Shown here piece by piece: positions 1 through 27,176 of a DNA stretch of 63,952 nt (positions are counted from its first letter, which is position 1; each line of letters starts with the position of its first letter). A program made the position numbers and the translations under genes. The notes beneath the pieces are model-generated. The model had not been told where the DNA came from. It saw only the letters and a program-made list of their open reading frames with translations, and did no database searches. The stretch comes from Burkholderiales bacterium. Lineage in GTDB: Bacteria; Patescibacteriota; Minisyncoccia; Phycocordibacterales; UBA9973. The stretch covers positions 1 through 63,952 of the forward strand of contig JAMPXW010000004.1 in the NCBI GenBank assembly GCA_023701005.1, read 5' to 3'.

Positions 1-252
1 ATTGGCAACAGAGTGATGACATCTCCAGATGGAATCACATGGACACCTCGCACAAGTGCTGTTGATAATAGCTGGTCTTCTGTAACTTATGGCAATGGAC
101 TCTTTGTAGCAGTTGCTAATTCAGGAACAAACAATAGAGTGATGACATCTCCAGATGGAATCACATGGACACCTCGCACAACCCCAGTAGATAACAGTTG
201 GATTGGTGTAACTTATGGCAATGGACTCTTTGTAGCAGTTTCTGCTACAGGG
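1..252. repeat. 126-bp (42-codon) tandem repeat inside the giant gene, at least 2 units, probably continuing upstream of the window
   Basis: nt 10-54 are identical to 136-180 (45/45). nt 82-114 are identical to 208-240 (33/33). Confidence 0.9.
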
Positions 253-3200
253 ACAAATGATAGAGTGATGACTTTTTCTAGTAATGGTATTTATTACACA
301 TATTCTTATACTGTAAACGCAGCTAATGGAAGTACATACATAGATGGTACAGCGACTGTATCATTATCAACAACTGTGGATGCAGTAGGAAATTCATCAA
401 GTACTCCAACGAATAATACATTTACAATAGACACGGCAGGGCCAACTGTTGCACTTACCTATAGTGCAAATCCAGCACCAACAGGTGCAATGACAATCAC
501 TGCAACATACAGCGAAGCTCCAACGACTACTCCAAACATTTCTATTAATCAACCTGGAACAACAGATATTTCTAATGTTGCAATGAGTGGCAGTGGTACT
601 GTGTACACATATTCTTACACTGTGAATACAGCTAACGGAAGCACATATATAGATGGTACAGCGACTGTGAGTTTGTCGGCAACGACAGATGCAGTAGGTT
701 ATTCTTCTTCAGCACCTACCAATAATACTTTTGCGATAGACACTGTCGGACCAACAGCAACTGTGACTTATTCCATTGATCGTACAGTTAAAGGTGGAGA
801 ATCATTGGTAATCACAGCTACTTTTAATAAAGTTGTGGCAGATGCACCAGTTATGAAAATTGGAATTTCAGGAGCAAATACTGTTTCTGCTACAAATATG
901 ACGAAAGTAGATACTACACATTATACTTACACTCATACAGTCGGAGCAGGAGATGGTGTAGCTACTGTAGCTTTAAGTGTGGGTACAGATTTAGCAGGGA
1001 ATGTCGTCACTTCTTCTCCTACAAGTGGAGCGACTTTTTCTGTAGATAATATTTTGCCTTCTTCGACGATTGATGCTATTTGTTCTACTTTAGGCAATGG
1101 TTGTACGGGTGCAGGTGCATTAGCAGACCCCCAAGAATCATACAGTGTGCAGTCTATAAAAGGTACAGCTTCTGATAATGAAGGTGGTTCAGGATTAAGT
1201 TCAGTAAAAATTTCTATTAAAGACACAACGACGAATCTTTGGTATAGTGGCTCATCTTTTGCTGATGGAACTGAAACATATTTGACAGCCACAGGTACAA
1301 CTGCTTGGAGTTTTAATTCTTCTGCAATGGCATTGACAATTGATCATGTTTATCTGATACATGTTAAATCAATAGATCTTGCGACAAACGAAGAGAGTCC
1401 TGTGCAAGCTCTTAGTTTTAAATTTGTAAATTCTCCACCTACAGTTTCGAATGTAACGGCTTCTCAAGATTCTAGTGGAGTAGTAAATATTTCTTTTGAT
1501 GTATCTGATATAGAATCTTCTCAAACTACAAATTATTTATTTTATGGAATTGGAGCAACATTAAATGGAGCAATAAATAGTTCAGTAAATTCTCTTACGG
1601 TTTCAGATGCTACATATTTATCTAGTTCTGGAAGCATAATTATTGATGATGAAATAATTACTTATACAAGCAAGACTGGTAATGTTCTGAATGGATTAAC
1701 AAGAGGAGCATTAAGTACTACAGCATCTTCTCACAACAATGCTTCTAGCGTCTATGCAAAAGCCACGACTGTCACAGGCACAGGAGTAGGTCTCGTAAAT
1801 GTCGGCACTGGTAAAACGATGGTTTGGACAGCTGGAACAGATATAGATGGTTATGAAAATTTAAGTGAAGTTATAAAAGTAGTTGTCAATGATGGATCTA
1901 CTGGTTCAATGATAGGTTCACTCGTTTCTGCTACGTTTGCTTTTGATACATTGAAGCCGACGGCAGTAGTGACCTTTGACGCAGGGATAGCTGGAGTCAC
2001 AAATAGTGCAACGATAACAATACCAATGCCGGTAGATCAATCTACTGTTGAATATAAAATCAGTGATGATGCTGTGTCTCAGACGAATCCTACAAATAGT
2101 GGTTGGGTCACAATGACGCAAAGTACTACTATACCTTGGACTTTTGATTCTGATGTAGAAGCAAAAACAATTAAATATCAATATCGTGATGCTTATGGAA
2201 ATATAAGTAATGAAGTTTCTATTTCGACCCTCGCTCCAGTAGCAGCTAATTCATTTTTGGTTCAAGATTCTTCGAATATAAATATTTCTACATATGATAT
2301 GTATATTGGTTGGGGAGAGATAGTAGATTTGACAGGATTTTCCGCTTATAAAATAGAATATGCAACTTCTGATGATAATGTGACCTATGGAAGCTATACT
2401 GCGGTTACTGCAGATGGTATGTCTAACCCTACTACAAATTATTATGTTCACAGATTGTTAAATCCAAATAAATATTATAAATATCGTCTTGGTGTCGTCG
2501 GAACAAATGGAAATGTATCTGTGCGAGCAGGTGCACCTATCGTGGCTAAACCAGACGGAGTTCAAAATTACGGAGAAGGAGGAAGTGGGAGTGAGGCAGT
2601 AGTAATAACTGCATCTAAAGTAGAAAATGTAGTTCCTGTTCAAGGAGTAGATAAAAATGTGACGATTACATATCTGTTAACAGATTCATCTTCTGCTTCA
2701 AAAACAAATCCAAGTTACGAAGCTTATTTGTTTTATAATATTGGTGTCACTCTACCTTCAAGTCCGCTTAGTGGAGACAACTTAACTGTCTCGGATGCAT
2801 CTAAATTAAAATCTTCTGGATTTATTCAAATAAATAATGAAATTATTAAATATACAAGCAAGACTGGTAATGTCTTGAGTGGTTTGACTAGAAGTACTTG
2901 GCCTACAAATGGTACGACACGTACTACTAGAACCAACACTACATTTTTCTCAGGAACTCCTGTCTGGATAATGGCTTCTAGCGCTACTCCTGTACAAATA
3001 ACAAATACGAGCATAGTTACTGGGCAAAATGGTTCTATCGCCTGGGATACAAATAGTGAGACTACTTTGTCAGGCTCTGTCTATACCAATGTAGGCATAA
3101 GAGTTTTAGTGCATGACAATCAAACTACAGAATCTTTGTCTACTCAGTCTGATTTTTCTGAAATTGGAATATTAAATACTTTAGATTTGAATTCACCAAC

Positions 3201-6162
3201 TATTTCTTTTAGTACGGCTAGTGCTTCTGGGGTAGAAACGACGAGTCCTGTCACTGCAACTTTAAATTTGTCTCGAGCTTATCCATTAGATGTTTCAATA
3301 AATTATGCTGTCACGGGTACAGCTACTTCGGGTGATGACTATACTTTAGCGAGTGGCACAGAGACGATAACGGCGGGACAGACCACAAAAAGTATAAGTA
3401 TCCCTATTATTAATGATGCCGTTTCAGAATTTGATGAGACTATTATAGTCACAATTTCTAGCCCGACAAATGCGAGGTTGGGAGCTAATACAGTGTTTAC
3501 TTATACTATAGAAGATAATTTATTACCTACTTTGGCATTTAATGCTTTGACTAGTCAAAGTAATGAAGATGTAAATACTGTAAACATCCCAGTTTCTATA
3601 TCAGCTGCATATTCTGATAATGTGACATTCTCTTATGTAGTGACTGGTGGAACAGCAGATGGAGATAGTGTAGATTATCTGCTCGCAAATGGTACGGGCA
3701 CCATAACAGCTGGCAATACTTCTACTGATATTAGTCTGACTATATTTGATGATAGTATTTCTGAATCAACTGAAACGATAATCGTTACGATTTCTAATCC
3801 AACAAATGCTGTATTGGGTTCAAATCAAAATCATGTTTATTCAATATTAGATAATGAAATAGAAGTGACGTCAGTAACAGGAGGAAACATAAAATCTACA
3901 AGTGCTCGTATAACGTGGACAACAGATGATTTTACAAATAGTTTGCTTGAATATGGAATCATAGCTCCGGGGACTGAAGGTGCTTATAATCTTTCAAAAA
4001 CTAATTCAGAAAAAGTTTTGAATCATAGTATTTATATAGATAATCTTACACCCTCTACTACTTATTATTTTAAGACAACATCTGTGAATTTAGATAATGA
4101 AGATACTATAGTAGAATCTTCATTTACTACGACAGCAGGTCCTGTGACAACAGGAGTTTCTTCTAGTGCTGTCACAGACACGACTGCCACTATAACATGG
4201 ACGACGGATATTCCTGCTAGCTCTTATGTAAATTATTCTAAAGATTCTTCTTTAGCAAGTCCTACGAGATTTGGTACAGCAGAGTTAACGACAGATCATT
4301 CTGTCGCATTGACAGGGTTAGATGCTGGTTCAAATTATTATTACTATGTTGATGGAACTGATACAGATGGTAATAATGGAGAAAATGCAAATGCAGGGAG
4401 TTATTATACTTTTACGACAGCTGCTGATCAGACTGCTCCAGTAATTTCTGCAATATCTTCTCCTATTGTCACACCCACTGAAGTTGCTATTGTTTGGACT
4501 ACAAATGAATTAGCCAATGGGAAGGTAATGTATGGAACGACTTCAGGTAGCTATACAAATGAAACTGAATTAATATCTACTCCACTTATAAACCATTTAG
4601 TTACAATAAGTGGTCTTACTAAAGTCACTAAATATTATTATGTAGTTGTGTCTGCTGATTCGAATAGTAATACTACAACATCAGCAGAACAGAATTTTAC
4701 TACAGGAGATGTAGAGACGGTGACAGTAGTGAGCGGTGGTGGCGGAGGTGGAGTGATGGGTGTAGCTCGAGAATTGTATGATATATTGTTGGCTGAAAAT
4801 GCCACTTATAAATCAAAATTAAAAGATTATGATGATAAAATTCCTGTAATTTCAAATATACAGATAAATGATATTACTGCATTTGGAGCCCTTGTTTCAT
4901 TTGAGACGAGTGAAGATACTATCGTATTTATTGATTATGGAAAAGATGAAAGTTATGGATTAATAGCAGCAGACAAAGGATGGTCTAAGATACACACTGT
5001 GAAAATTTATGGATTAAGTTTGGGTACAGAATATAATTTTAAAATTAGTGCCATAGACAGATCAAACGATACTGGATATTCTGATAATCAAAAGTTTACT
5101 ACTAAGTTTTTAACTGAAGATTTGGCCGAATTGAAAAAAATAGAAAATGTAGAACAATTTCAAGATGAAATAGAGTCCACTATTGAGTCGATTCTTCCTT
5201 CTTTGGTTCCTCCTTTTATAGATAAACCAGTTGTTTCTGATATTACAGAAAATAGTGCGACGATTACTTTCCGTACAAACATAAAAGCATATCCTATTGT
5301 TAGTTATGCTGCTGAAAATAAATATGATGCGACAAAGTTGAATCCTTATGACGGAGAAATGTCAGATACTTCAGAGAAAAAAGTTCTGCACACTTTGTCT
5401 TTAGTAAGCCTGGCTCCAAATACTAAATATCATGTTATGGTAAAAGCTTATTCTTTACCACAAGTCGTCGGCAAATCAGAAGATTTTGTCTTTACTACAG
5501 AAGCTTCAAAGATTCAAGGTTCTATATTAGATATCAAAAAAGATTCCTTTACTGTAGTTTGGCAAACCGATGAAGCCACTTCTTCTATTATTGAATATAA
5601 AAATTTAAGTACAGGGAAAATAGCTCGCATGGTAGATGATGTTAAGAATATTTCTCATTCAGTATTGGTAGAAAATTTATCCCCAGGAACTTTGTATCAA
5701 GTAAATATTTCAGGAATAAATGATAAAGGAAATATAGTAGAAGGAAGTGCTCCTTTGAACGTTAAAACTTCAACAGACAACACTCCTCCCGTTATAACAA
5801 ACTTGAAAGTAGATAGTTCTTTGGTTGCAGGCAGAACAGATAAAGTGCAAGTCATTGTATCTTGGCAGACAGATGAAGCTTCTACTTCGACTGTATACTA
5901 TGAAGAGGGTTCTGGATCTTTGAAAGGTTCATTAGCAAACAAACAACAGGATGAAGAACTTACAAAGAATCATGTGGTTATTATGACTTCTTTAAAACCA
6001 GGTACTGTTTATAGATTTACAGTAGAATCGAAAGATGATGCTAATAATATAGTAAAACCTCCAATCCGTACGATAATTACTCCTAAGAAGGCTGAATCTA
6101 TTGTAGATGTTATATTTAAAAACTTTAATGAAACATTTAATTTCATAAATAATGTTCGATAA
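1..6162 (+). CDS. Giant secreted/surface repeat protein, 5' end cut by the window edge (propeller-like 42-aa repeats, Ig-like modules, two Calx-beta-like domains, long FN3-like array)
   Basis: The frame is open from nt 1 (track ORF 13..6162, 2049 aa). It has tandem MTSPDGITWTPRT...YGNGLFVAV units. Two Calx-beta-like segments are present (VTGTATSGDDYT.., VTGGTADGDSVDY.., each ending DETIIVTIS / TETIIVTIS). Many ..ITWTTD.. FN3-like units follow. Confidence 0.85.
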   Translation: MGNRVMTSPDGITWTPRTSAVDNSWSSVTYGNGLFVAVANSGTNNRVMTSPDGITWTPRTTPVDNSWIGVTYGNGLFVAVSATGTNDRVMTFSSNGIYYTYSYTVNAANGSTYIDGTATVSLSTTVDAVGNSSSTPTNNTFTIDTAGPTVALTYSANPAPTGAMTITATYSEAPTTTPNISINQPGTTDISNVAMSGSGTVYTYSYTVNTANGSTYIDGTATVSLSATTDAVGYSSSAPTNNTFAIDTVGPTATVTYSIDRTVKGGESLVITATFNKVVADAPVMKIGISGANTVSATNMTKVDTTHYTYTHTVGAGDGVATVALSVGTDLAGNVVTSSPTSGATFSVDNILPSSTIDAICSTLGNGCTGAGALADPQESYSVQSIKGTASDNEGGSGLSSVKISIKDTTTNLWYSGSSFADGTETYLTATGTTAWSFNSSAMALTIDHVYLIHVKSIDLATNEESPVQALSFKFVNSPPTVSNVTASQDSSGVVNISFDVSDIESSQTTNYLFYGIGATLNGAINSSVNSLTVSDATYLSSSGSIIIDDEIITYTSKTGNVLNGLTRGALSTTASSHNNASSVYAKATTVTGTGVGLVNVGTGKTMVWTAGTDIDGYENLSEVIKVVVNDGSTGSMIGSLVSATFAFDTLKPTAVVTFDAGIAGVTNSATITIPMPVDQSTVEYKISDDAVSQTNPTNSGWVTMTQSTTIPWTFDSDVEAKTIKYQYRDAYGNISNEVSISTLAPVAANSFLVQDSSNINISTYDMYIGWGEIVDLTGFSAYKIEYATSDDNVTYGSYTAVTADGMSNPTTNYYVHRLLNPNKYYKYRLGVVGTNGNVSVRAGAPIVAKPDGVQNYGEGGSGSEAVVITASKVENVVPVQGVDKNVTITYLLTDSSSASKTNPSYEAYLFYNIGVTLPSSPLSGDNLTVSDASKLKSSGFIQINNEIIKYTSKTGNVLSGLTRSTWPTNGTTRTTRTNTTFFSGTPVWIMASSATPVQITNTSIVTGQNGSIAWDTNSETTLSGSVYTNVGIRVLVHDNQTTESLSTQSDFSEIGILNTLDLNSPTISFSTASASGVETTSPVTATLNLSRAYPLDVSINYAVTGTATSGDDYTLASGTETITAGQTTKSISIPIINDAVSEFDETIIVTISSPTNARLGANTVFTYTIEDNLLPTLAFNALTSQSNEDVNTVNIPVSISAAYSDNVTFSYVVTGGTADGDSVDYLLANGTGTITAGNTSTDISLTIFDDSISESTETIIVTISNPTNAVLGSNQNHVYSILDNEIEVTSVTGGNIKSTSARITWTTDDFTNSLLEYGIIAPGTEGAYNLSKTNSEKVLNHSIYIDNLTPSTTYYFKTTSVNLDNEDTIVESSFTTTAGPVTTGVSSSAVTDTTATITWTTDIPASSYVNYSKDSSLASPTRFGTAELTTDHSVALTGLDAGSNYYYYVDGTDTDGNNGENANAGSYYTFTTAADQTAPVISAISSPIVTPTEVAIVWTTNELANGKVMYGTTSGSYTNETELISTPLINHLVTISGLTKVTKYYYVVVSADSNSNTTTSAEQNFTTGDVETVTVVSGGGGGGVMGVARELYDILLAENATYKSKLKDYDDKIPVISNIQINDITAFGALVSFETSEDTIVFIDYGKDESYGLIAADKGWSKIHTVKIYGLSLGTEYNFKISAIDRSNDTGYSDNQKFTTKFLTEDLAELKKIENVEQFQDEIESTIESILPSLVPPFIDKPVVSDITENSATITFRTNIKAYPIVSYAAENKYDATKLNPYDGEMSDTSEKKVLHTLSLVSLAPNTKYHVMVKAYSLPQVVGKSEDFVFTTEASKIQGSILDIKKDSFTVVWQTDEATSSIIEYKNLSTGKIARMVDDVKNISHSVLVENLSPGTLYQVNISGINDKGNIVEGSAPLNVKTSTDNTPPVITNLKVDSSLVAGRTDKVQVIVSWQTDEASTSTVYYEEGSGSLKGSLANKQQDEELTKNHVVIMTSLKPGTVYRFTVESKDDANNIVKPPIRTIITPKKAESIVDVIFKNFNETFNFINNVR

Positions 6163-9208: not shown

Positions 9209-11074
9209 ATGGATTTAAAATACATTAGAAATTTTTCTATCATAGCTCACATAGACCACGGCAAGAGTACTTTGGCAGATAGAATGTTAGAAATAACTCA
9301 TACCATAGAAGCACGTAAAATGCGTGCGCAATTTCTTGATTCAATGGAACTTGAGAGAGAAAGAGGCATAACCATAAAAATGCAACCTGTTCGCATGGAA
9401 TTCTCCCCGAATTCCCCGAAGCCTGGCTTAGGGGAGTTTCCCCTAAGCCAGGCTTCGGGAAAGGAAGAAACATATGTTCTAAATCTTATAGATACTCCAG
9501 GACATATTGATTTTTCTTATGAAGTTTCTCGTGCTTTGAAAGCAGTTGAAGGTTCTATCTTGCTTGTAGATGCCACACAAGGAGTGCAAGCTCAAACACT
9601 CACTACATTAGAAATGGCAAAAGAAAGTGGGCTCGTTATTATACCTGTTTTATCAAAAGTCGATTCACCGCTTGCCAGAGTGGAAGAAATAAAAATGGAA
9701 GTGGCTGTATTGCTCGACATAGATCCAGATTCTATTTTAGAAGTTTCTGGCAAGACGGGTTATGGTGTAGAAAATTTATTGGAAGAAATAATAAAACAAG
9801 TTCCACCTCCTTTGTTTTTTGAAGAAGTTAAAGATAGCGCTCAAGCATTAGTTTTTGATTTCAAATATGATAGTCATAGGGGAGTTATCGTCTATGTCAG
9901 ACTTTTTGATGGGTCTATAAAAAAGGGTGACAATCTTATTTTTTCTGTATCAGGTGAGAAATTTATAGCATTGGAGGTTGGTATATTTTCTCCAGAAGAA
10001 AATCCTAAACCATCCATTAATACTGGAGAGATAGGTTATATTGTCACAGGCATAAAAAAACCAGGTATAGCTTCTGTTGGAGATACAATTACTTTTAATA
10101 AAAAACCTTTACCTGCTTTGCCAGGATACATGAATCCAAAGCCAGTAGTTTGGGCTTCTGTCTACCCAGAAGATGCTGATGATTTTCCTAATTTAAAACT
10201 CGCATTAGGGCGTTTAAAGCTTTCTGATTCGGCTTTTTCTTATGAAGAAGAATCTTCAGGGACTCTTGGTAAAGGTTTTCGTTGTGGATTTTTAGGTATG
10301 CTCCATTTAGAAATAATTACAGAAAGATTAAAAAGAGAGTTTAATTTGCATTTAGTGGTGACGATGCCTTCGATCACATATAAAGTGATTTTAAGAAATA
10401 ATAAAGAACAAATCATTTATTCTCCACATTTTTTTCCGGATGATAGTCAGATTATTAAAATTTATGAACCGTGGGTTTCTATAAATATCATTACTCCTCA
10501 GATATATACTAGCGTGCTTATGCCATTTCTTTTCGATCATGAGGCAGAAGTTCATACTACAGATAATTTTGGAGACAATAGATCGGTAATACATTTAGAT
10601 ATGCCATTACGAGAACTAATGCGTAATTTCTTTGATGATTTAAAAAGTATTACTTCTGGTTATGCTTCTATATCTTATGAAATAGGAGAATATAGAGAGG
10701 CAGATGTTGTAAGATTAGATATATTAGTCGCAGATGAACCAATGATGGCTTTTTGTAGGGTTGTTTCAAGAAGGAAAGTAGAAGAAGAGGCCCGAGCTCA
10801 GGTAGATAGATTAAAAAAGGTTATATCACGTCAACAATTTGCTTTTAAAATACAAGGTAAGGCCTTGGGTAGGATAATAGCTTCTGAGAGTGTATCTGCT
10901 TTCCGTAAAGATGTTTTGATGCATGGCAGTAAAGTAGTCGGAGGGGGAGATGTAAGTAGAAAAAAGAAACTTCTTGAAAAACAAAAGAGAGGTAAAGCCA
11001 GAATGAAAGAAAATGCAAAAGTAAACATCACACAAGATGTGTTTTTGAAAATGATGAGGACAGGAGATAATTAA
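9209..11074 (+). CDS. lepA: Translation elongation factor 4 (LepA)
   Basis: IRNFSIIAHIDHGKSTLADR, DTPGHIDF and the characteristic LepA C-terminal domain. It contains an in-frame palindromic insert (next feature). Confidence 0.95.
   Translation: MDLKYIRNFSIIAHIDHGKSTLADRMLEITHTIEARKMRAQFLDSMELERERGITIKMQPVRMEFSPNSPKPGLGEFPLSQASGKEETYVLNLIDTPGHIDFSYEVSRALKAVEGSILLVDATQGVQAQTLTTLEMAKESGLVIIPVLSKVDSPLARVEEIKMEVAVLLDIDPDSILEVSGKTGYGVENLLEEIIKQVPPPLFFEEVKDSAQALVFDFKYDSHRGVIVYVRLFDGSIKKGDNLIFSVSGEKFIALEVGIFSPEENPKPSINTGEIGYIVTGIKKPGIASVGDTITFNKKPLPALPGYMNPKPVVWASVYPEDADDFPNLKLALGRLKLSDSAFSYEEESSGTLGKGFRCGFLGMLHLEIITERLKREFNLHLVVTMPSITYKVILRNNKEQIIYSPHFFPDDSQIIKIYEPWVSINIITPQIYTSVLMPFLFDHEAEVHTTDNFGDNRSVIHLDMPLRELMRNFFDDLKSITSGYASISYEIGEYREADVVRLDILVADEPMMAFCRVVSRRKVEEEARAQVDRLKKVISRQQFAFKIQGKALGRIIASESVSAFRKDVLMHGSKVVGGGDVSRKKKLLEKQKRGKARMKENAKVNITQDVFLKMMRTGDN
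9415..9459. repeat. Perfect 20-bp-arm GC-rich palindrome inserted in frame in lepA
   Basis: CCCGAAGCCTGGCTTAGGGG-aGTTT-CCCCTAAGCCAGGCTTCGGG. It is related to the gatB copy at 55704-55750. Confidence 0.9.
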
Positions 11075-12561: not shown

Positions 12562-13839
12562 ATGGAGAAACATTGGATTAAAAATTTTGATAAATTAGCA
12601 ATTACCGAAAATCGCAAAATGGCTTTAGAGATTATAGAAGCAGGGCTTGATGCGATAAATACAGAAAAAGTTATTGAATCTTCTATCTCAATGATGGGGA
12701 ATACTTTAGTTATAAAAGGTAAAAGTTTTAATTTGTCTAAATATAAAAATATAAAGATAGTAGGATTTGGTAAATCTTCTTGTGATGCTGCTTTGGCCTT
12801 AGAAAATATTTTAGGAGATAAAATAAAAGAAGGAGCTGTTGTCGGACTTCATAAGATTGATTGCAAATATATTGAAACGTTTGAAGGGACTCATCCTAGA
12901 CCTTCAGAAAAGAATATTGAAGCGGGACAAAGGATATATGATATAGCAAATGATGCAGGTGAAGATGATCTTATTATTGCGATAATATCTGGTGGTGGAT
13001 CAGCATTACTTTGTTATCCAGAAACTGAGTATAAAGAAGGAGCTAAGCTTTATGAGTCTTTTTTGAAAACGGGTAAGACTATTTCAGAGATGAATACAGT
13101 AAGAAAACATCTTTCTTTATTGAAAGGAGGAGGTTTGGCTAAAGTGGCTTATCCTGCGACTGTTGTTGGGCTTATATTTTCAGATGTTCCTGGAGATTTG
13201 TTCTCAGATGTAGCTTCTGGTCCCACCTACAAAGACAATACGACCTTAGCTGATGCCAAACAAATAATAATCAATAATAAATTGGGTGAATTTATTTTGA
13301 ATGAGACACCCAAGGATGATAAGTATTTTGAAAAAGTTTACAATTTTGTATTAGTTTCAAATAAAACAGCAGCAAAGAAAATGGCAGAAAAAGCTGAGGA
13401 ATTTAATTTTGATGTGAATGTTGTTTCTACTGATTTATATTATGAAATAAATAAATCACTTGAAAAGATATTTTTATGTAAAAAAGAGAATTCTGTTATT
13501 TTAGCAGCAGGTGAATCTCGTGTTGTTGTAGAAAAAAGTGGAGGGAAAGGTGGTAGGAATCTGCATACAGCTCTTTTAGCTGTGAAAAATAAGATTGCAG
13601 ATAGTGAACATTCTGTTTTTATTTCTTTTGCTTCTGATGGCATGGACAATAGTGACGCAGCAGGTGCTGTGGTAGATAAATATACCTTAGAAAAAATAAA
13701 GAATTTAGGTATAGATATAAATGATCACTTGGAACGTTTTGATTCGTATCCAGTATTTGAAAAAACAGGAGATATTATTATTACTGGCCCCACAGGAGCT
13801 AATGTGTCTGATCTTATGATACTTTTAACTAAAAAATAA
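12562..13839 (+). CDS. Glycerate kinase, MOFRL family (DUF4147 + MOFRL)
   Basis: GFGKSS.., IISGGGSALL, GGKGGRN and ITGPTGANVSD resemble TM1585-type glycerate 2-kinases. Confidence 0.75.
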   Translation: MEKHWIKNFDKLAITENRKMALEIIEAGLDAINTEKVIESSISMMGNTLVIKGKSFNLSKYKNIKIVGFGKSSCDAALALENILGDKIKEGAVVGLHKIDCKYIETFEGTHPRPSEKNIEAGQRIYDIANDAGEDDLIIAIISGGGSALLCYPETEYKEGAKLYESFLKTGKTISEMNTVRKHLSLLKGGGLAKVAYPATVVGLIFSDVPGDLFSDVASGPTYKDNTTLADAKQIIINNKLGEFILNETPKDDKYFEKVYNFVLVSNKTAAKKMAEKAEEFNFDVNVVSTDLYYEINKSLEKIFLCKKENSVILAAGESRVVVEKSGGKGGRNLHTALLAVKNKIADSEHSVFISFASDGMDNSDAAGAVVDKYTLEKIKNLGIDINDHLERFDSYPVFEKTGDIIITGPTGANVSDLMILLTKK

Positions 13840-18122: not shown

Positions 18123-18141
18123 AAATTAAATATAAAATAAA

Positions 18142-18170
18142 AAGCGGATTTTGCTAAGCAAAATCCGCTT
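18142..18170. terminator. Bidirectional intrinsic terminator
   Basis: 11-bp stem AAGCGGATTTT/AAAATCCGCTT with a 7-nt loop. A T-run follows on both strands, between convergent genes. Confidence 0.85.
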
Positions 18171-18193
18171 TTGGTTGTTTGTTGGAAAATCAA

Positions 18194-19437: not shown

Positions 19438-19508
19438 GCGGGGTTAGTTTAGTGGTAAAATGAGTGCTTCCCAAGCATTAGACACGAGTTCGATTCTCGT
19501 ATCCCGCA
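19438..19508 (+). tRNA. tRNA-Gly(CCC)
   Basis: Cloverleaf: acceptor GCGGGGT/ATCCCGC, anticodon loop TTCCCAA, T arm ACGAG-TTCGATT-CTCGT. CCA is not encoded. Confidence 0.85.
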
Positions 19509-19536
19509 CAGATATTAAAAATTAGGCAAAAAGAAA

Positions 19537-19558
19537 CCGCTCAAAATTAATTGAGCGG
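19537..19558. terminator. Bidirectional intrinsic terminator
   Basis: CCGCTCAA-aattaa-TTGAGCGG with T-runs on both strands. Confidence 0.75.
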
Positions 19559-19571
19559 CGTTTTAAATTGT

Positions 19572-21266
19572 TTACTTTGTTAAGATCATTTTTTTTGATT
19601 GTGTAAATGATCCTGTGGAAATTTTATATATATACATTCCACTAGCCAATCCGGTTGCATCAAATTTTGCTTGATATAAACCAGCAGCTTTTTCTTCTTT
19701 AACCAACTCAGCAATTTCTCTACCGATTATGTCGTACACTTTTAGTGTAACGAATCCGGCTGTAGGAAGGGAATAGTTGATTGTAGTACTAGGATTAAAT
19801 GGATTCGGATAATTTTGTTCCAATTTGAAATCTGTTGGAGTTGCCGTTTCTTCTTCGACAGCAGTAGTTACCACAGGAGAGACGATTATTTGTCTTCCTT
19901 CGTTTACCATTCCAGAGAATTCAGTTGGAGTTTTGGCAGTGAAGATTGGATCTTTTAAGGAAGGATTAATATTAACAGAATAAGCATTATTACCTATTTG
20001 TTTAAACATTCCATTATGTCCAGATAATTTTGTATTATCTTTTAGGAAAAAATCACCATTGGTCACTTTCTCACTAGCAAAAGCTCCGTATTGTCCATTT
20101 GGCAATTTTTTCCAATTTACCGTTATCGGGTCTTTTGGTATTATCTTGCCAACAGCACCATTGTTATAACCAAATATGGGCCATTCATTCATGCTTGATT
20201 GATTCATAAGATATCTTAAAAATAAGATGACATCCCATGTTAATATTTTACCATCACCGGTCAAATCAGCTTTGACTAATGATGTATCATTAGATGGTGT
20301 TGTTCCCACAAGATCAAACATTGGACGAGCATCATTGATGTCTCTTTTTCCATCTTTTTTAAGATTACCATATTCTGTTCTTGCTAGTTCAATTATTTTA
20401 AATGGAGATATGTTCTTTTGCCAATGATTAGTTCCATCGAATAGGTCGATGTTAGATGAAAACATATTATTCTTTGTATTGTTTGAAACAAATATTAAGA
20501 ATGTTCCTAAATTTATTCCATTGTAAAAAGAAGTTGGTTCACCTACAGCAGCGAAATTTAATTCATTACCATTATAACTAGCAGATGGATATATCCAATT
20601 TGAATAATAAAATATTTTACCTGGCCAAAAGTCAAATGGCATCAAGTGATTTTCCATGTAAGTTATTTTTAATTGGGCGCGATCTAATATTCCATATCCG
20701 ATAATGTTAATTTGAGTTTCTGCATAAGTTTCAGCTCCGACAGGTCTTCCTGATATTTCAATTTTAGGAAGTTCTGATACTAACGCTATGAAAGGCGATG
20801 GAGTAGTATAAATACTCATGCTTTTACCCATAGAGCCTTCGGTGTAAGATATTTCATTTAATTGAATTTGAGCTGTTGAACCAGATGAATATCCGCCAGG
20901 AATACCAATTCCTGCATAAGAAAGATGTACTTCAAAATTAGATTTGGTATTAGCCGGAATATTGATGTTTAATCCACCAAAATGTACGACATTGCCGACA
21001 TCTTTTGAGGCTAATACAAGCGATCCTTGTTGCAACTTCATGCTTGTTATTGGTCCATAAACTTGAATTTCTAGATCTGTTACCGTTATGTTGGTATTGT
21101 AGCTTATATCATATACTACCTTACCTCCGTCAGATAAACCATTATTGCCGACTACAATGTTTTGTGTTTGTGTAGTTAGATCTTTGTTTAATGTGACAGT
21201 TGGTTGAGCAAAAGTGCTCAATGTGCAGATAACTAAAATTAATACAGCGGTGAATAGCTTTTTCAT
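19572..21266 (-). CDS. Secreted protein with dockerin-like Ca-binding repeat and T9SS-type (Por_Secre_tail-like) C-terminal sorting domain
   Basis: Signal peptide MKKLFTAVLILVICTLSTFAQP. DLTGDGKILTWDV repeat. C-terminus LEQNYPNPFNPSTTINYSLP..VTLKVYDIIGREI..SGMYIYKI. AGGAGA RBS. Confidence 0.8.
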   Translation of the reverse strand: MKKLFTAVLILVICTLSTFAQPTVTLNKDLTTQTQNIVVGNNGLSDGGKVVYDISYNTNITVTDLEIQVYGPITSMKLQQGSLVLASKDVGNVVHFGGLNINIPANTKSNFEVHLSYAGIGIPGGYSSGSTAQIQLNEISYTEGSMGKSMSIYTTPSPFIALVSELPKIEISGRPVGAETYAETQINIIGYGILDRAQLKITYMENHLMPFDFWPGKIFYYSNWIYPSASYNGNELNFAAVGEPTSFYNGINLGTFLIFVSNNTKNNMFSSNIDLFDGTNHWQKNISPFKIIELARTEYGNLKKDGKRDINDARPMFDLVGTTPSNDTSLVKADLTGDGKILTWDVILFLRYLMNQSSMNEWPIFGYNNGAVGKIIPKDPITVNWKKLPNGQYGAFASEKVTNGDFFLKDNTKLSGHNGMFKQIGNNAYSVNINPSLKDPIFTAKTPTEFSGMVNEGRQIIVSPVVTTAVEEETATPTDFKLEQNYPNPFNPSTTINYSLPTAGFVTLKVYDIIGREIAELVKEEKAAGLYQAKFDATGLASGMYIYKISTGSFTQSKKMILTK

Positions 21267-21470
21267 TTTTGATTCTCCTGGTTGGTTTGTGATTGTTTAT
21301 TTAGTGAGATATTCCCACTAATTTAAGGGCGAAAAGGGGATTCGTCCACAAATTAGCGAGAATATTTCAATTTTTTTCAACGTACTTTTATGCCACATAT
21401 ATTAGCATTTTTAAGACAAAATGTCAAGGTTAGGGGATTATGTCATATGATATAATAAATATATTAAAAG

Positions 21471-21514
21471 TAATCCCGACATTATTCGGGGCCACCCGGT
21501 AAAAGTCGGGATTA
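21471..21514 (+). promoter_or_regulatory. GC-rich two-tier hairpin in the 5' leader of the glutaredoxin-like gene
   Basis: Perfect 10-bp arms TAATCCCGAC/GTCGGGATTA enclose CGGG-gcca-CCCG. It ends 9 nt before the ATG, and a TATAAT lies at 21451-21456 upstream. Confidence 0.5.
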
Positions 21515-21523
21515 TAAAAACAT

Positions 21524-21760
21524 ATGAAAAATGTAACTATTTATTCAACACCAACTTGCCACTTTTGCCACCTAGCAAAAGATTTTTTTAAGGCGAATGA
21601 CATAGCTTATGCAGAATATGATGTAGCTTCAGATATAGAAAAAAGAAAAGAAATGATGGATAAAAGTGGTCAGATGGGTGTGCCTGTCATCGTTATTGGT
21701 GATGAGATGATAGTGGGTTTTGATAAGCCTGTAGTAGCTAAGGCTTTAGGACTTATCTAG
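21524..21760 (+). CDS. Glutaredoxin-like protein (YruB/NrdH-like)
   Basis: 78 aa, CHFC active site at the N-terminus of a thioredoxin fold, GVPVIVIG. Confidence 0.85.
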   Translation: MKNVTIYSTPTCHFCHLAKDFFKANDIAYAEYDVASDIEKRKEMMDKSGQMGVPVIVIGDEMIVGFDKPVVAKALGLI

Positions 21761-21773
21761 ATTTTTTGTATTG

Positions 21774-21845
21774 TGTCCTCGCCGGGAGTCGAACCTGGAT
21801 CAGCTCGTTAGGAGTGAGCCGTTCTATCCATTGAACTACGAGGAC
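21774..21845 (-). tRNA. tRNA-Arg(CCU), with two A-C mismatches
   Basis: Acceptor GTCCTCG/CGAGGAC, anticodon loop CTCCTAA, T loop TTCGACT. A-C mismatches at 31-39 and 51-63. Confidence 0.65.
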
Positions 21846-21921
21846 TTTAATTAAGAACTCTTATAATTTAACACAAAAAGTCAGTTTTGGAAAATTGGCT
21901 TTTTTGTTTAGCTATGATAAA

Positions 21922-22209
21922 ATGACTTTTATGGATCCTGAAACAAAAGAATTGTTAAAAACTAATCTTGTTTTAGCTGAAGAAAATAACAAATTACTTC
22001 ATCAAATAAGGGGGGTTCAAAAGAGGGAGACATTATGGCAGATAGCAAAGATTTCTGTGATAGTACTTATTGCCTTGGGATCTTTTTATTATATAGAGCC
22101 TTATTTAAATAAAGTGATGGATTTATATACTTCTGTAACAGGGATAGAACAAGATGTAAAAAGTGCTGTTTCTGGTGAATCTTTGAAGGATTTGTTGAAG
22201 AAATTTTAA
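21922..22209 (+). CDS. Hypothetical membrane protein
   Basis: First ATG within the track ORF 21895..22209. One TM helix (ISVIVLIALGSFYYI). Confidence 0.5.
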   Translation: MTFMDPETKELLKTNLVLAEENNKLLHQIRGVQKRETLWQIAKISVIVLIALGSFYYIEPYLNKVMDLYTSVTGIEQDVKSAVSGESLKDLLKKF

Positions 22210-22257
22210 AATTATTGCAAAAATAATAATTTTTAGTAATATATATGTATAGATAAT

Positions 22258-22330
22258 GCTGGGATAGCTCAGTCAGTAGAGCATTCGCCTGAAGAGCGAA
22301 GGGTCGGCAGTGCGATCCTGCCTCCCAGCA
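22258..22330 (+). tRNA. tRNA-Phe(GAA) with a non-canonical T loop
   Basis: Acceptor GCTGGGA/TCCCAGC, anticodon loop CTGAAGA, T arm GGCAG-TGCGATC-CTGCC. Confidence 0.8.
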
Positions 22331-22337
22331 CAAAAAA

Positions 22338-22365
22338 ACAAGCTCCGAGACATCTCGGAGCTTGT
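22338..22365. terminator. Bidirectional intrinsic terminator
   Basis: 11-bp stem ACAAGCTCCGA/TCGGAGCTTGT flanked by an A-run and a T-run. Confidence 0.85.
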
Positions 22366-22375
22366 TTTGTGTTTT

Positions 22376-22849
22376 TTAGATAGATTTTACTTTTATAGTA
22401 TTTTTCTTTTCTTTGTCTACTTTTTGTATTTTGATAGTCAAAAGTCCGTGTTTTTCTGTAGCTTCAACTTCTTCGGGTTCCACTTCTTGAGGTAATAAAA
22501 TTGTTCTAGAGAATTTACCCCAATAGAGTTCTTTTATAAAATAATTTTCTTCATCAATATTTCTATTTTCTTCTCTTTTGCCTTTTATAGTTATCATGTC
22601 ACGAGCGATAGTCAGATCTAGGTCTTCTGGTTTTACTCCGGCCACCATTGTTTGCACTATTATATCTGTAGAAGTTTGGTATACATCTACAGTCAATTCC
22701 ATTTCTTCATTTTCTTCTTCCATCCAACCATTTCCATTTTTCTTTCCATTATCTTTTCCTGAGATGTCTTTTATTTCTTCTTCGTCATCATTTACACTTC
22801 CGGTTAATCTATCAAAGAAACTTCTTTTTTTATTATTTTGCATATTCAT
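22376..22849 (-). CDS. Hsp20/alpha-crystallin small heat-shock protein
   Basis: The alpha-crystallin core ..VDVYQT..IVQTMVAGVKPEDLDLTI..FSRTILLP..GLLTIKI. Confidence 0.9.
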   Translation of the reverse strand: MNMQNNKKRSFFDRLTGSVNDDEEEIKDISGKDNGKKNGNGWMEEENEEMELTVDVYQTSTDIIVQTMVAGVKPEDLDLTIARDMITIKGKREENRNIDEENYFIKELYWGKFSRTILLPQEVEPEEVEATEKHGLLTIKIQKVDKEKKNTIKVKSI

Positions 22850-22870
22850 ATAAATTATTTGCTAATTATA

Positions 22871-23563
22871 TTAATTTGTAACGCTCATTCTTCTTAGTTT
22901 TTCAAAAAGTAGCATGACTATTGTTGTGACTACCCAAAGAAAACCCAAGACTCTAAAAAAATTATTACCACTATCTTCCATTATAAAAAAATTAAAGGTA
23001 CTATGCAAGGCAATAGCGAGGAATATACCTATAAAAAGATATATTTTTTTTATAAATTTACTCATAAAGAAAGACAAACCTAAAGCTATCCCTATTATTC
23101 CGCTAGACATAGCATGTAAAAGGGTAGAACCCAAGAATCTGAGTTGTCCTGTTAAGAGACTCACTGTCGTTTGTTCTAATGTCAATGGTTTTAATAAAAA
23201 CATAGTATTTTCTATTGCCGCGAATCCTAAAGCTGAAGTTATTAAAAATATAGGCCAGTCTATGGGTTCGTCTATTTTGTTTGTTTTATATAAAAGAATA
23301 ACAACAGCCAAATATTTAAAAATTTCTTCTACACTAGCCCAGGATATGACTTGCCATTCATGTATGCCTATGATATTTTTAATAAATTTTTGTACAGGTA
23401 TTACAAAAACAATAGATATCATACCCATGATAAATATAGTAGTTATTAATCCTTTGGGTTCTGGTTTTTGATTGTCTTCTTTTAACCAAAACCAAAGCCA
23501 AAGTAGGGCGGGAGCAAATCCACCCAGAATAGCAAGACTCAATATTTTGGGATCGCTAGTCAT
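22871..23563 (-). CDS. PrsW-family intramembrane protease
   Basis: Polytopic protein with EEIFKY, HAMSSGIIG and HSTFNF motifs. Confidence 0.7.
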   Translation of the reverse strand: MTSDPKILSLAILGGFAPALLWLWFWLKEDNQKPEPKGLITTIFIMGMISIVFVIPVQKFIKNIIGIHEWQVISWASVEEIFKYLAVVILLYKTNKIDEPIDWPIFLITSALGFAAIENTMFLLKPLTLEQTTVSLLTGQLRFLGSTLLHAMSSGIIGIALGLSFFMSKFIKKIYLFIGIFLAIALHSTFNFFIMEDSGNNFFRVLGFLWVVTTIVMLLFEKLRRMSVTN

Positions 23564-25754
23564 TGATGTTGTCTTTATCTATGCTTAAGGGCCAAGGTTC
23601 AACCATTAATAATTGTTTGTTTGAAGTAGGAACAAGTGACCATATTTCTTCTGTCACAAAAGGCATAAATGGATGCAATGCTTTCAATAAAGTAGTGAGT
23701 TGTGTATATAAAATAGTTTTAGCTGACTCTGTATTCTTGTTTTCTAATATTTTCTTTTTTGATCTTTCAATTATTATATCTGCGAAAGTGTGCCAAAAAT
23801 AATGATATAATTTTTCTGCTACGATAGAATATCTAAATTCATTCATTTCTTTCGAAACTTCTTTTATTAAATTATCCAATTCTTCTTTGCTTGTTTTGTC
23901 TTCTTCGTCTAATTCTGGAAGATTATTTATATCTAAATCTTTTGTTTGTTCTAATACAAACCTAGAAGCGTTCCATATTTTGTTTGCAAATTTACCATAG
24001 CCACGGATATCATTTTCATTTAATTTTAAGTCATTACCAGGAGTATTTCCTATGATCATGGCTAACCTTAATGCATCGTTACCATACTTCACTATTATAT
24101 CTAGTGGATCTATGGCTTTATCGCCAAGAGACTTAGACATTTTTTTACCATCAGCCGTTCTTATCATTCCATGCAAATATACAGTTTTGAAAGGAATTTC
24201 TTCCAATAAATATTGAGACATTAAAATCATACGCGCTATCCAAAAGAACAAAATATCATGTCCAGTCTCTAATATGTTGGTGGGGTGATATTTTTGTAAA
24301 TCTTTTGTTTTTTCTGGCCAACCTAATGTAGAAAATGTCCAAAGCCCAGAAGAGAACCATGTGTCTAAGGTATCTTCATCTTGTGTCCAGCCATCTTCTT
24401 TAGGAGGATTTATATCACAATAAATTTGGTCTCCTTTATACCAAACGGGGATTCTGTGTCCATACCATATTTGACGAGAGATACACCAATCTCTAAGATT
24501 GTTAATCCAATTAAAATAAACTTTTTCAAAATGACTTGGCAGGATTTTTATTTTTTCATCATTTACTGGCTCCAGCATTAGTTCTTTTAAACTTTTGCCT
24601 GCCTGTCTGGTAGGCAGGTTGTTTCTAGAGGGTATTTTTTTATTTACATCGATAAACCATTGAAGCATTATTTGTGGTTCTATCATTCCTCCTGTTCTTT
24701 CTGCTGTTGCTACTCTATTTACATAATTTTCATCAACAGAAATTAAAAGACCTTTTGATTTTAATTTGTCGACAATTTTTTCTCTTGCCTCATTTATTTT
24801 CATGCCAGCGAATTCTTGTGCAATAGGGAGGAGTTTACCGTATTTGTCTATTATTTGTTCTTTGTCTAATTTGTATTTTTCTGCTAGGGCAAAGTCTTCA
24901 TGAGAATGCCAAGGAGTTATCGTCATTACTCCGGTACCAAATTCCATGTCTATCACTTCGTCTTTTATGATTGTCGCTTCTATTGGGCCATTTATCCATT
25001 CTAGCGTTATCTTTTGGCCGTGTTGCCAATCTTTATATCTTTTATCCTCAGGATGCATTACTACGTATTTATCACCAAATTTTGTCTCTGGTCTTGCTGT
25101 GGCTATTTCAAAAGGACCATATTTGAAAGTATAAAATTTGCCCTTTTTTTCTTCGTAAATTGTTTCATCATCGGAGATAACTGTTTGGCCTTTTGGATCC
25201 CAATTTACTATTCTGTGTCCGCGATAAATCAAACCGTCGTCATACATTTTTTTAAATGCAGTTCGCACAGCTAAATTCCTTTTTTCATCTAAGGTGAAAG
25301 CTTCACGAGACCAGTCGAGAGAAGCACCCATTTTTTTGCATTGATTTACTATTGTGTCATGAGAGTCTTGTGCGAATTTTTCTACTCTTTTTAGAAATTC
25401 TTCGCGACCTAAATCATTTTTGCGAATACCTTCTTTTTCTAAAAGTTTTTCTACTTTTGATTGTGTTGCTATTGCGGCATGATCTGTTCCAGGTAGCCAT
25501 AATGTATTTTTACCTTGCATTCTAGCATGACGAATCATGATGTCTTGTATCACCAACATCAGAGCGTGTCCTGTGTGTAGATTGCCTGTGACATTGGGTG
25601 GGGGAAGCACAATAGAAAAAGGTTCTGCATCAGGTTTGGTAATACCTTTTTCTATACAAATGTCAGGATTAAAAAAACCACTTTCTTCCCAAAGTTTGTA
25701 TATTTTTTCTTCAGTTGTTTTTGGGTCATATGGCTTTAGCAGTTTCTCGTCCAT
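23556..25754 (-). CDS. valS: Valine--tRNA ligase (compact form)
   Basis: HIGH-type motif PNVTGNLHTGHAL and KMSKS motif. 732 aa. Confidence 0.93.
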   Translation of the reverse strand: MDEKLLKPYDPKTTEEKIYKLWEESGFFNPDICIEKGITKPDAEPFSIVLPPPNVTGNLHTGHALMLVIQDIMIRHARMQGKNTLWLPGTDHAAIATQSKVEKLLEKEGIRKNDLGREEFLKRVEKFAQDSHDTIVNQCKKMGASLDWSREAFTLDEKRNLAVRTAFKKMYDDGLIYRGHRIVNWDPKGQTVISDDETIYEEKKGKFYTFKYGPFEIATARPETKFGDKYVVMHPEDKRYKDWQHGQKITLEWINGPIEATIIKDEVIDMEFGTGVMTITPWHSHEDFALAEKYKLDKEQIIDKYGKLLPIAQEFAGMKINEAREKIVDKLKSKGLLISVDENYVNRVATAERTGGMIEPQIMLQWFIDVNKKIPSRNNLPTRQAGKSLKELMLEPVNDEKIKILPSHFEKVYFNWINNLRDWCISRQIWYGHRIPVWYKGDQIYCDINPPKEDGWTQDEDTLDTWFSSGLWTFSTLGWPEKTKDLQKYHPTNILETGHDILFFWIARMILMSQYLLEEIPFKTVYLHGMIRTADGKKMSKSLGDKAIDPLDIIVKYGNDALRLAMIIGNTPGNDLKLNENDIRGYGKFANKIWNASRFVLEQTKDLDINNLPELDEEDKTSKEELDNLIKEVSKEMNEFRYSIVAEKLYHYFWHTFADIIIERSKKKILENKNTESAKTILYTQLTTLLKALHPFMPFVTEEIWSLVPTSNKQLLMVEPWPLSIDKDNIND

Positions 25755-25786
25755 ATTTAAATAATATCATAATATTATTGTATTTT

Positions 25787-27016
25787 CTACTTCAAACGAA
25801 GATTGCCCTTGGCTTTGATACTAGATGTTTTTGGTGTTTTTCCATGCCTATCGGCAGGCAAGTTATTTTTTTTTATATATTGTAAATAGCCGGCGATGCC
25901 TATCATAATCGAATTGTCTCCAGTCAATTTCTTTTCTGGGAAAAGAAGGGCGACATCTTTGTTTATAGATTTTTTTATTTCCCTTTGTAAATGTTCATTA
26001 CAAGAAACTCCTCCCGCGACTATCAGTGTTTTGGGTTTATATTTTTCTATAGCTTTTTTTGTTTTATGAGTTAATGTTTCTACAACGGCATTTTCAAATT
26101 CTAAAGCTATGGCTTGTTTTACTTTTTCATTTTGTAAGATGTTTTGATTTTCTTTTTTAAGATCACGAATTAAATAGAGCACAGCGGTCTTTAATCCTGA
26201 AAAAGAAAAATCAAAATTTTTACTATAAATCATAGGACGAGGCAAAGAAAAAGAAAAATAATTTTTACGGGGTGTCTCGCAGGCTGAAGAGCCGAGAGGC
26301 AGCGCTCCGCGAGCACGCGGAGACAGCGACCCCGCAGGAATTGATTTTTCTTTTTCTTTGCCTTCATTTTCTTTCCTTTCTTCTTCTGCTAATTTTGAAA
26401 TTTGTGGACCGCCCGGGTATGTAAGTCCCATCATTCTCGCTACTTTGTCATAAGCTTCTCCAGCAGCATCATCCAATGTTTCTCCTATTATTTTATAATT
26501 CAACCAGTCTTTAGATAAGATTAATTCTGTATGTCCTCCAGATACGAGTAAGGATAAGACAGGGAAGTTTACTTTTGGTATTTTGAATGAACCTTCAGAT
26601 TTACCAAAGACAGACATTATATGTCCTTCCATGTGATTTACGGGAATGATGGGTATTTTGTATTTTTCAGATAATTCTTTAGCGAAAACAATTCCCGTCC
26701 AAAGTGAAGGCTCTAGTCCTGGTCCATAAGTGACGGCTATTAAATCTATGGGTTTCTTTTTTTTATCTAATCTACTTTTCTCTAGTGCATCTTGTAAGAG
26801 TATTGGTAAATTTTTTATGTGTTCTCTTTTAGCGAGCATGGGGAAGACACCGCCATATTGTGCATGGATATTTATTTGGGAATTTGAAGTGTTAGCTAAT
26901 ATTTTAAAAGAAGCCTGTCTCGCTCTGCCAAGGCGGGCATTTTTTATAGCTCCCTTAGCTTCAAATATGGTTATGGCTGTGTCATCACAACTTGTTTCTA
27001 TGCTAAGTATTTTCAT
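25787..27016 (-). CDS. tsaD: tRNA N6-threonylcarbamoyladenosine synthase TsaD, carrying extra in-frame segments
   Basis: ILSIETSCDDTA, GGVFP, PVNHMEGH, SGGHTE and GPGLE.. motifs. The start is taken at MKILSIE (27016). It looks longer than I would expect for TsaD. Confidence 0.9.
   Translation of the reverse strand: MKILSIETSCDDTAITIFEAKGAIKNARLGRARQASFKILANTSNSQINIHAQYGGVFPMLAKREHIKNLPILLQDALEKSRLDKKKKPIDLIAVTYGPGLEPSLWTGIVFAKELSEKYKIPIIPVNHMEGHIMSVFGKSEGSFKIPKVNFPVLSLLVSGGHTELILSKDWLNYKIIGETLDDAAGEAYDKVARMMGLTYPGGPQISKLAEEERKENEGKEKEKSIPAGSLSPRARGALPLGSSACETPRKNYFSFSLPRPMIYSKNFDFSFSGLKTAVLYLIRDLKKENQNILQNEKVKQAIALEFENAVVETLTHKTKKAIEKYKPKTLIVAGGVSCNEHLQREIKKSINKDVALLFPEKKLTGDNSIMIGIAGYLQYIKKNNLPADRHGKTPKTSSIKAKGNLRLK
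26268..26338. repeat. About 70-bp GC-rich imperfect palindromic block inside tsaD
   Basis: CGGGGTGTCTCGCAGGCTGAAGAGCCGAGAGGCAGCGCTCCGCGAGCACGCGGAGACAGCGACCCCGCAGG. Inner hairpin CTCCGCG-agca-CGCGGAG. Outer pairings CGGGGT/ACCCCG and GTCTC/GAGAC. Confidence 0.8.
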
Positions 27017-27092
27017 CCCATTAGAAGTTATTCTCAATAATTAATGTTTATATCAATATTCGCCCGTTGGTGAACTTCTAACGGGACACGTG

Positions 27093-27165: not shown

Positions 27166-27176
27166 TTAAGTTTTGA

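Follow-up and report, generated by a model that had tools for sequence, protein, structure and literature searches.

A probable REP/REPIN-type palindromic element inserted in frame in lepA and gatB of a Patescibacteria genome

The stretch of DNA analysed here, referred to as the window, comprises the 63,952 nucleotides (64 kb) of contig JAMPXW010000004.1 from assembly GCA_023701005.1, which GTDB places in the Patescibacteriota (UBA9973). Its lepA gene (elongation factor 4, EF4; 9209–11074, plus strand, 621 aa) contains a GC-rich palindrome that is read in frame between the ERERGITIK and DTPGH motifs of the encoded protein. A first-pass annotation, made by a model from the sequence alone, had described this block as a 20-bp perfect inverted repeat around a 5-nt centre, with 14 of the 20 arm positions being G or C in AT-rich surroundings, and each of these points was confirmed. 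The arms CCCGAAGCCTGGCTTAGGGG (9415–9434) and CCCCTAAGCCAGGCTTCGGG (9440–9459) are fully complementary around AGTTT, and their G/C content of 70% compares with 29–39% GC across the window. Pairing extends to 24-nt arms (9412–9435 and 9439–9462) that are 96% complementary, with one mismatch and a 3-nt loop. The element as delimited here (9412–9462, no strand assigned; perfect core 9415–9459) spans 51 nt, or 17 codons, and the block is translated in frame as SPKPGLGEFPLSQASGK (context ..EFSPNSPKPGLGEFPLSQASGKEETYVLNLIDTPGH..); MEFSPNSPKPGLGEFPLSQASGK is an example of the peptide predicted from the insert. Immediately 5' lies the near-duplicate noted in the first pass, an in-frame 9-nt tandem copy of the element's 5' end on the plus strand (9404–9412), in which TCCCCGAAT is followed by TCCCCGAAG and the pair spans 9404–9421. 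This duplicate is also present in gatA of a related locus, L003 (loci from other genomes carry L numbers here), and is decayed in L006 and L001.

A sister copy, also reported in the first pass, lies in gatB (55309–56796, plus strand, 495 aa). There the doublet occupies positions 55702–55752, with perfect 23-nt arms at 55704–55726 and 55728–55750, and is inserted in the loop that follows the HLEED..NNKH segment and precedes YSLIDFNRAG. It is translated as PPEAQLRGNSPKLGFGE, in a reading frame other than that of the lepA copy. Per arm, two compensated substitutions (CTG/CAG versus CCA/TGG) separate the two copies, and a simple inversion of the centre was rejected as the source of this difference. 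When the palindrome pattern was searched in the window, eight strand-matches were obtained at two places, lepA and gatB, whereas 0.01 were expected from shuffled sequence. The DNA folding z-scores of the two copies against shuffled sequence are −8.1 and −9.7, and their RNA folding free energies are −46 and −50 kcal/mol.

The boundaries of the lepA insert were defined by alignment of the window's LepA with its 120 closest proteins (78–95% identity; 121 sequences with the window's own). A short loop of the form EY-xLNGQ-NY, with no insert, is found in 93 of the 121, which bears out the first-pass statement that the linker at this place is short in canonical LepA. Removal of 51 nt (9412–9462) from the window gene leaves EF-SPKEE-TY, a loop equal in length to that of the empty orthologues; thus, the insert is exactly 17 codons. 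Mapping onto solved structures gave a similar picture, with 16 residues fewer at the insert point in Thermus EF4 (5IMQ) and 14 fewer at the gatB insert point in Thermotoga GatB (3AL0). In an AlphaFold model of the window's LepA, residues 66–88, which include the insert (approximately residues 68–85), form a coil between strands 60–65 and 89–96; the mean predicted local distance difference test score (pLDDT) of the model is only moderate (63.7) and is below 50 over residues 70–85. For GatB, the insert-free sequence NNKH-DRGD-FSLIDFNRAG is present in most of 78 Paceibacteria species-representative genes. No target-site duplication or conserved target tetranucleotide was found at approximately 15 insertion sites, where all that recurs, a T ahead of TCCCC together with an A following GGGGA, may be part of the element itself.

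The long hairpin is built from smaller ones. Taken singly, either arm is an imperfect palindrome, CCCC-G-AAGC-CCA-GCTT-A-GGGG, in which the fifth position is a conserved mismatch and the centre is 3 nt long, so the element is a doublet of the form unit–spacer–inverted unit. The unit is ~21–24 nt long (consensus TTCCCC-G-AAGC-CCA-GCTT-A-GGGGAA) and the spacer within doublets is 1–5 nt. In lepA, the left unit (9412–9436) reads CCCC-G-AAGC CTG GCTT-A-GGGG and, folding by itself, reaches −7.8 kcal/mol as DNA, while the inverted right unit (9438–9462) reads CCCC-T-AAGC CAG GCTT-C-GGG. In an alignment of 18 doublets, 94.7% of the cells of the long hairpin are paired, and both sides have changed in five pairs (22 cells), a level of covariation that was reached by 0 of 500 shuffles. 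The inner hairpins are paired in 96.9% of cells. In the same four sequences, both arms have UA in place of CG at the innermost pair, a four-way covariation. In two lepA copies from Hainich groundwater (L093, 19–69; L096, 4544–4594), the 3-nt arm centre is flipped relative to the family consensus, and L093 has CTGGG in both arms, leaving a centre that is no longer complementary. These flips suggest that the inner loop has inverted between the inner repeats that enclose it.

The element, called family A here, is not confined to the window. A scan of the GTDB species representatives with the full pattern matched five contigs, all from one metagenome-assembled genome (MAG), Ca. Nomurabacteria JAPLXV01, where the host genes are lepA (same site), a murE-like gene, gatA, rsmI and fmt, all entered in frame. 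A one-arm pattern added copies in gatB, a xerC-like gene, murD and a 424-aa open reading frame (ORF), bringing the sampled parts of this MAG to at least nine copies; beyond JAPLXV01, it matched seven other Patescibacteria genomes and gave four chance matches in GC-rich genomes. Six Hainich groundwater contigs from JGI and ENA metagenomes carry copies in murD, lepA (same site) and gatB. In GCA_023267215 (LepA 88% identical), the nearest genome represented by a long contig, the element occupies the lepA site and the MOFRL kinase gene contains a variant of it. Across related genomes of Paceibacteria (Nomurabacteria and relatives), at least 12 different genes are hosts, always in frame, among them lepA, gatB, gatA, murD, murE, fmt, rsmI, rsmH, the MOFRL kinase gene and the xerC-like gene. 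Units also stand alone: 24 nt (eight codons) in length, they are translated as SPKxxLGE or PExxLRG and lie in frame in rsmH, rlmI-like and recR-like genes and others.

Two of the three reading frames are used. One, SPKPSLGE.PLSWASGK, is read in lepA, gatA and rsmI, and another, FPEAQLRG.SPKLGFGE, in gatB, murE, murD and fmt. The remaining frame is interrupted by TAG and TAA and is unused, except by the first arm of the MOFRL kinase copy, a variant that lacks the TAG. Stop avoidance and lengths divisible by three are expected of an insert that is retained in the mRNA and translated. Two loci of JAPLXV01 also contain a second GC-rich structured repeat, ACCCCTACCYTCCTCCCCYTTACTAAGGGGGAGGTGCCAAAGGCGGAGGGGGT (L001, ~5650–5710; L005, ~2065–2125), which is unrelated to family A and whose in-frame copies in LepA domain II and Fmt encode the peptide LP[LF]TKGEVPKAEGV; the window's LepA lacks it.

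The lepA and gatB loops are also occupied by other palindromes. In lepA, L009 carries a different palindrome with a 26-bp stem and a similar nested layout, L008, whose LepA is 95% identical to that of the window, just one short hairpin, and L199 and L200 two short hairpins side by side. In gatB, L012 and L073 hold compensated variants of family A, and three further perfect palindromes with self-complementary arms were found (one shared by L011 and L056, one in L014 and one in L041). All hairpins of 14 or more paired bases were catalogued over ~1.5 Mb, and they fell into two classes: long, GC-richer, nested palindromes that lie nearly all within long ORFs, and AT-rich, terminator-like hairpins bounded by an A-run and a T-run. 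Intergenic hairpins of the second kind (AAACAAAAAA-stem-loop-stem-TTTTTTGTTT) lie ~6–9 kb from gatB in L015, L017, L019, L023, L025, L028, L041, L043, L073 and L081, and the window has intergenic AT-rich hairpins at 18140–18172 and 44696–44779. These resemble bidirectional terminators and are distinct, as a class, from the in-frame palindromes.

Repeats of this kind may be accompanied by a transposase gene. Repetitive extragenic palindromic sequences (REPs) and their hairpin-forming doublets (REPINs), such as the bacterial interspersed mosaic elements of E. coli and the REPINs of Pseudomonas (PMC3116915, bioRxiv 10.1101/119735), are linked to REP-associated tyrosine transposases (RAYTs). An E. 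coli RAYT sequence, used as a lead only, was searched by tblastn and matched ORFs in L109, L001, L093 and L018; confirmation came from Pfam, NCBIfam and a fold search. In these four loci the proteins are 219–236 aa long, and the motifs are YHIYNRGN, NHFH (HUH) and YIHLNP. The Pfam family Y1_Tnp (PF01797) is matched at 41.4 bits (cut-off 23), and JGI annotates several homologues as RayT. For a structure model with a pLDDT of 89.4, the best PDB neighbour is 4ER8_A, the E. coli RAYT in complex with a REP hairpin (E = 2.6e-6), and the TnpA structures of ISDra2 and IS608, with the IS200/IS605 fold, follow at Foldseek ranks 2–17. The RAYT-like family has at least 588 loci among the Paceibacteria of the GTDB representatives.

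Many of these genes are flanked by hairpins of their own. Among the best 80 Y1 genes in Paceibacteria, ~60 have short flanking hairpins whose stems covary between genomes, and at ~12 of these the flanks are nested doublets of the in-frame kind. The L041 gatB palindrome shares its core, AGGTCSGACCT, with one flank. Family A itself accompanies the gene in L109 (6742–7482) and in L192, L196 and L198 (~3968–4713): a single 5' unit abuts a TATAAT box ~10 nt before the RAYT start codon, a 3' unit overlaps or directly follows the last codons, and a third unit lies inside the gene, in frame, directly after the HUH motif. In L194 the 5' unit is missing and an rve-type integrase gene (2722–3528) is found just upstream of the RAYT-like gene; the 3' and in-gene units are present. 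In each of these five genomes, the RAYT-associated repeat variants match one another, and among 120 RAYT homologues the in-gene insert peptide and the C-terminal tail covary. This arrangement of repeats around and within the gene may bear on autoregulation. Four of the L109-type genes share one slot, in the order greA, aminoacyl-tRNA synthetase (aaRS) gene, RAYT, mraZ, rsmH, penicillin-binding protein gene and mur ligase gene, which suggests the behaviour of resident RAYTs, not of insertion sequences (bioRxiv 10.1101/119735). The L001-type Y1 gene occurs in varied contexts, with up to three copies in one MAG; downstream of it in L001, the 5' end of an ORF contains (GCAAA)x9 (~1790–1840), which is perhaps prone to slippage.

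Taken together, these observations make it likely that the lepA and gatB blocks are elements of a REP/REPIN–RAYT system, whose repeats survive in genes and are translated as disordered loops. Like the repeats of described systems, they are short imperfect palindromes, found singly and as inverted pairs, and a pair folds into one long hairpin that shows compensatory changes; in relatives, a cognate Y1/HUH gene flanked by the same units occupies a conserved, possibly vertically inherited locus, and the best fold match of the transposase is the E. coli RAYT–REP complex 4ER8. The first-pass annotation had proposed a selfish or structured mini-element comparable to Rickettsia palindromic elements (RPEs); the occurrence in at least 12 genes and two frames supports that proposal, which is here sharpened to a doublet of the REP/REPIN type linked with a Y1 transposase that resembles RAYTs.

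Several observations weigh against this interpretation or set the element apart from described systems. Nearly all family copies lie in frame inside long ORFs, unlike the extragenic REPs and REPINs, and the ends of the family consensus TTCCCCGAAGCCCAGCTTAGGGGAA lack the GTAG or CGTC tag that marks the described REP super-families. The doublet is also very compact (51 nt, with a 1–5-nt spacer), the protein, at 219–240 aa, is longer, and the host phylum, Patescibacteria, is a different one. The best NCBIfam model is REP_Tyr_transpos, yet the score is 44 against an equivalog cut-off of 80; a phmmer search of the PDB sequences with the RAYT-like protein gave no match, and a profile search of the PDB returned only 4ER8, as a weak sequence match (E = 0.46). 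In JAPLXV01, the single Y1 gene seen is flanked by a hairpin, CTGCGTTAGGTCTTGCCTAACGCAG, that is not family A. The window itself contains no RAYT-like gene (six homologues searched by tblastn, best E = 0.15), and since the rest of the genome was not seen, the link between repeat and RAYT is drawn from related genomes. Translation of the inserts is read from their frame and from stop avoidance, and their mobility is indicated indirectly, by patchy presence, clean in-frame empty sites and the lack of target duplication; no transposition intermediate, excision read or enzyme activity was observed.

The slot that holds the cognate RAYT-like gene in relatives can be located in the window, where the synteny is the same (greA at 35000, aaRS gene at 35477–36967, mraZ at 37716, rsmH at 38230). 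Between the aaRS gene and mraZ lie ~750 bp (36968–37715) with no RAYT homology and no REP units; the only content is a 99-aa Cys-rich ORF on the minus strand (37028–37327) that has no Pfam match. Because this slot is empty, the two window copies may be orphans of a lost RAYT, or the RAYT may lie elsewhere in the unseen part of the genome. Other features of the window include an ORF of 2049 aa (13–6162) with six Pur_ac_phosph_N-type repeats and Calx-beta and fibronectin type III domains, whose product is probably a giant surface protein, and seven tRNA genes scattered over 19438–30221 and 48341–48412, which coincide with a strand-switching region. In L199, a class I aminoacyl-tRNA synthetase (tRNA-synt_1, >1038 aa; 1–1943) has embedded DUF559 and MTES_1575 endonuclease-like domains.

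A first alternative is that the palindrome is a structure selected by the host and not a selfish element, acting either as RNA (a translational pause, an RNase III site or a determinant of mRNA stability) or as DNA (protein binding or a cruciform). Such selection would fit the compensated changes that keep the palindrome near-perfect across GatB orthologues of 62–79% identity, as well as the 9-nt duplicate next door, which decays while the palindrome does not; host roles have also been credited to described REPs (PMC3733652). However, most close relatives lack the element in the same genes, the host genes are functionally unrelated, and presence is patchy in both directions. Empty sites in the window were scored in rsmH and the MOFRL kinase gene (murD, gatA, rsmI and fmt orthologues being absent from it): rsmH (38230–39126, plus strand) is empty at ~38496, where L106 has a single REP unit in frame, and the MOFRL-type glycerate kinase gene (12562–13839, plus strand) is empty at ~13483, where L006 has an in-frame doublet. 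A search of the whole window with Rfam at gathering thresholds returned only seven tRNAs and nothing at the elements, and the comparison of G-U with other mismatches gave no RNA-specific signal. A host-selected structure also leaves unexplained a transposase gene flanked by the same units, and we regard it as unlikely.

About equally improbable is a local origin, in which fold-back or template-switch replication at fragile loop-coding sites would generate nested palindromes de novo and within-strand correction would hold their arms identical, with no transposase involved. Two rounds of inverted duplication would yield just such a nested symmetry (a b a' – loop – a b' a'), and both the unrelated palindromes in the very same lepA and gatB loops of different genomes and the centre-triplet flips between L093 and L096 could be read in this way. 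Local events do not account for near-identical copies in many unrelated genes of one genome, however, nor for arms that are dissimilar to the flanking gene sequence, nor for the presence of the same units beside RAYT-like genes, with which they covary.

That the inserted 17 residues were selected as a functional protein motif is less probable still: inserts are indeed always in frame and in exposed loops, but the use of two reading frames contradicts a functional peptide, since one DNA yields two unrelated peptides, and in addition conservation tracks base pairing and not amino acids, and the segment is predicted to be disordered. An assembly or amplification artefact, conceivable because chimeric reads can yield palindromes, is excluded for practical purposes by the agreement of independent assemblies and studies (Lac Pavin, New Zealand groundwater, an ENA assembly and Hainich groundwater), which have the same element at the same lepA site, in frame and with lineage-specific compensated variants. 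The first-pass annotation had asked about this possibility and about orthologues encoding a homologous peptide in non-palindromic DNA; the copies at orthologous sites are always palindromic DNA.

For the REP/REPIN–RAYT system, a mechanism can be proposed by analogy with IS608, ISDra2 and the E. coli RAYT. The RAYT-like enzyme would recognise the hairpin on single-stranded DNA, cut it and rejoin the ends, and copies would be moved, excised or overwritten without target-site duplication, as by IS200/IS605 and RAYT enzymes. The clean empty sites would be explained by precise excision, which is typical of the HUH Y1 family. In gene-dense genomes, the survivors would be insertions that are divisible by three, free of stops and located in exposed loops, the rest being purged by selection. 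The insert would be transcribed and translated into a short, passive, disordered surface loop with no function of its own, and orphan copies such as those of the window would persist because removal must be precise.

Other known elements share some of these features. Insertion sequences of the IS200/IS605 family (ISDra2, IS608) are known for precise excision, which fits the clean empty sites seen here. They and their gene-less derivatives resemble the present system in transposase fold, in hairpins at the gene ends and in the lack of target-site duplication, but the L109-type gene is syntenic across genomes, not scattered, and the repeats are tiny palindromes, not fusions of a left and a right end, with no conserved target tetranucleotide found. 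The GC clusters and double-hairpin elements of fungal mitochondria are GC-rich nested hairpins in compact AT-rich genomes, sometimes within coding sequence; the likeness is one of analogy only, as those are organellar, unrelated in sequence and without an associated HUH transposase. Similar in behaviour is RPE-1, palindromic repeats that Ogata et al. (2000) reportedly described in frame in many housekeeping genes, where they are said to be tolerated on protein surfaces. RPE-1 is ~100–150 bp long and not known outside Rickettsiales, and it has no known transposase partner. It shares with the present element the in-frame palindromic insertion in many housekeeping genes, is set apart by length (51 nt here) and host (Patescibacteria here), and is probably unrelated in sequence.

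The nearest precedent is provided by intragenic REP units and dimers in Opitutus terrae (GTAG) and in RPE-4 and RPE-6 of Rickettsia conorii (CGTC), which add ~20–30 residues to unrelated proteins; dimer partners can be as little as 1–2 bp apart, and inactivating insertions are presumed to have been purged (PMC3733652). Because such intragenic dimers have been reported, the kind of element described here is already known. In those cases, too, REP units and dimers within ORFs encode extra residues, but the sequence families and phyla are others, intragenic copies are a minority there and nearly all copies here, family A lacks the CGTC tag of RPE-4 and RPE-6, and recurrent use of the same loops by different families is not described in that account. 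A literature search found no publication linking RAYT or REP to Patescibacteria. What is new is the phylum, the absence of a tag, the near-exclusively intragenic habitat, the loop hot spots and the repeat inside the transposase gene.

A more speculative proposal, which we put forward tentatively and consider possible but on balance doubtful, is that the REP/REPIN population of Paceibacteria resides almost wholly in essential genes at fixed loop addresses, such as the LepA beta2–beta3 turn, the GatB loop, one MurE site and the site inside the RAYT gene, and is overwritten in place as the repeat co-evolves with its RAYT. Overwriting is suggested by the presence of different families in the same loops and by the in-RAYT repeat, which is renewed at a fixed position. 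If this is true, overwriting would imply RAYT-mediated strand exchange between resident hairpins, not random insertion, and protein surface loops would be where a selfish replicator, inherited vertically, mainly lives in ultra-small genomes.

As interpreted here, these elements would extend REP/REPIN–RAYT systems to the Candidate Phyla Radiation (CPR), where, in tiny gene-dense genomes, the repeats would persist in essential genes as translated loop insertions. This would explain a class of unusual GC-rich insertions by which conserved proteins of CPR MAGs are enlarged, and which could otherwise be taken for assembly errors or lineage-specific protein features. In addition, the loops shared by different palindrome families, together with the copy inside the transposase gene, would offer a natural system in which to study how RAYTs choose or renew their sites.

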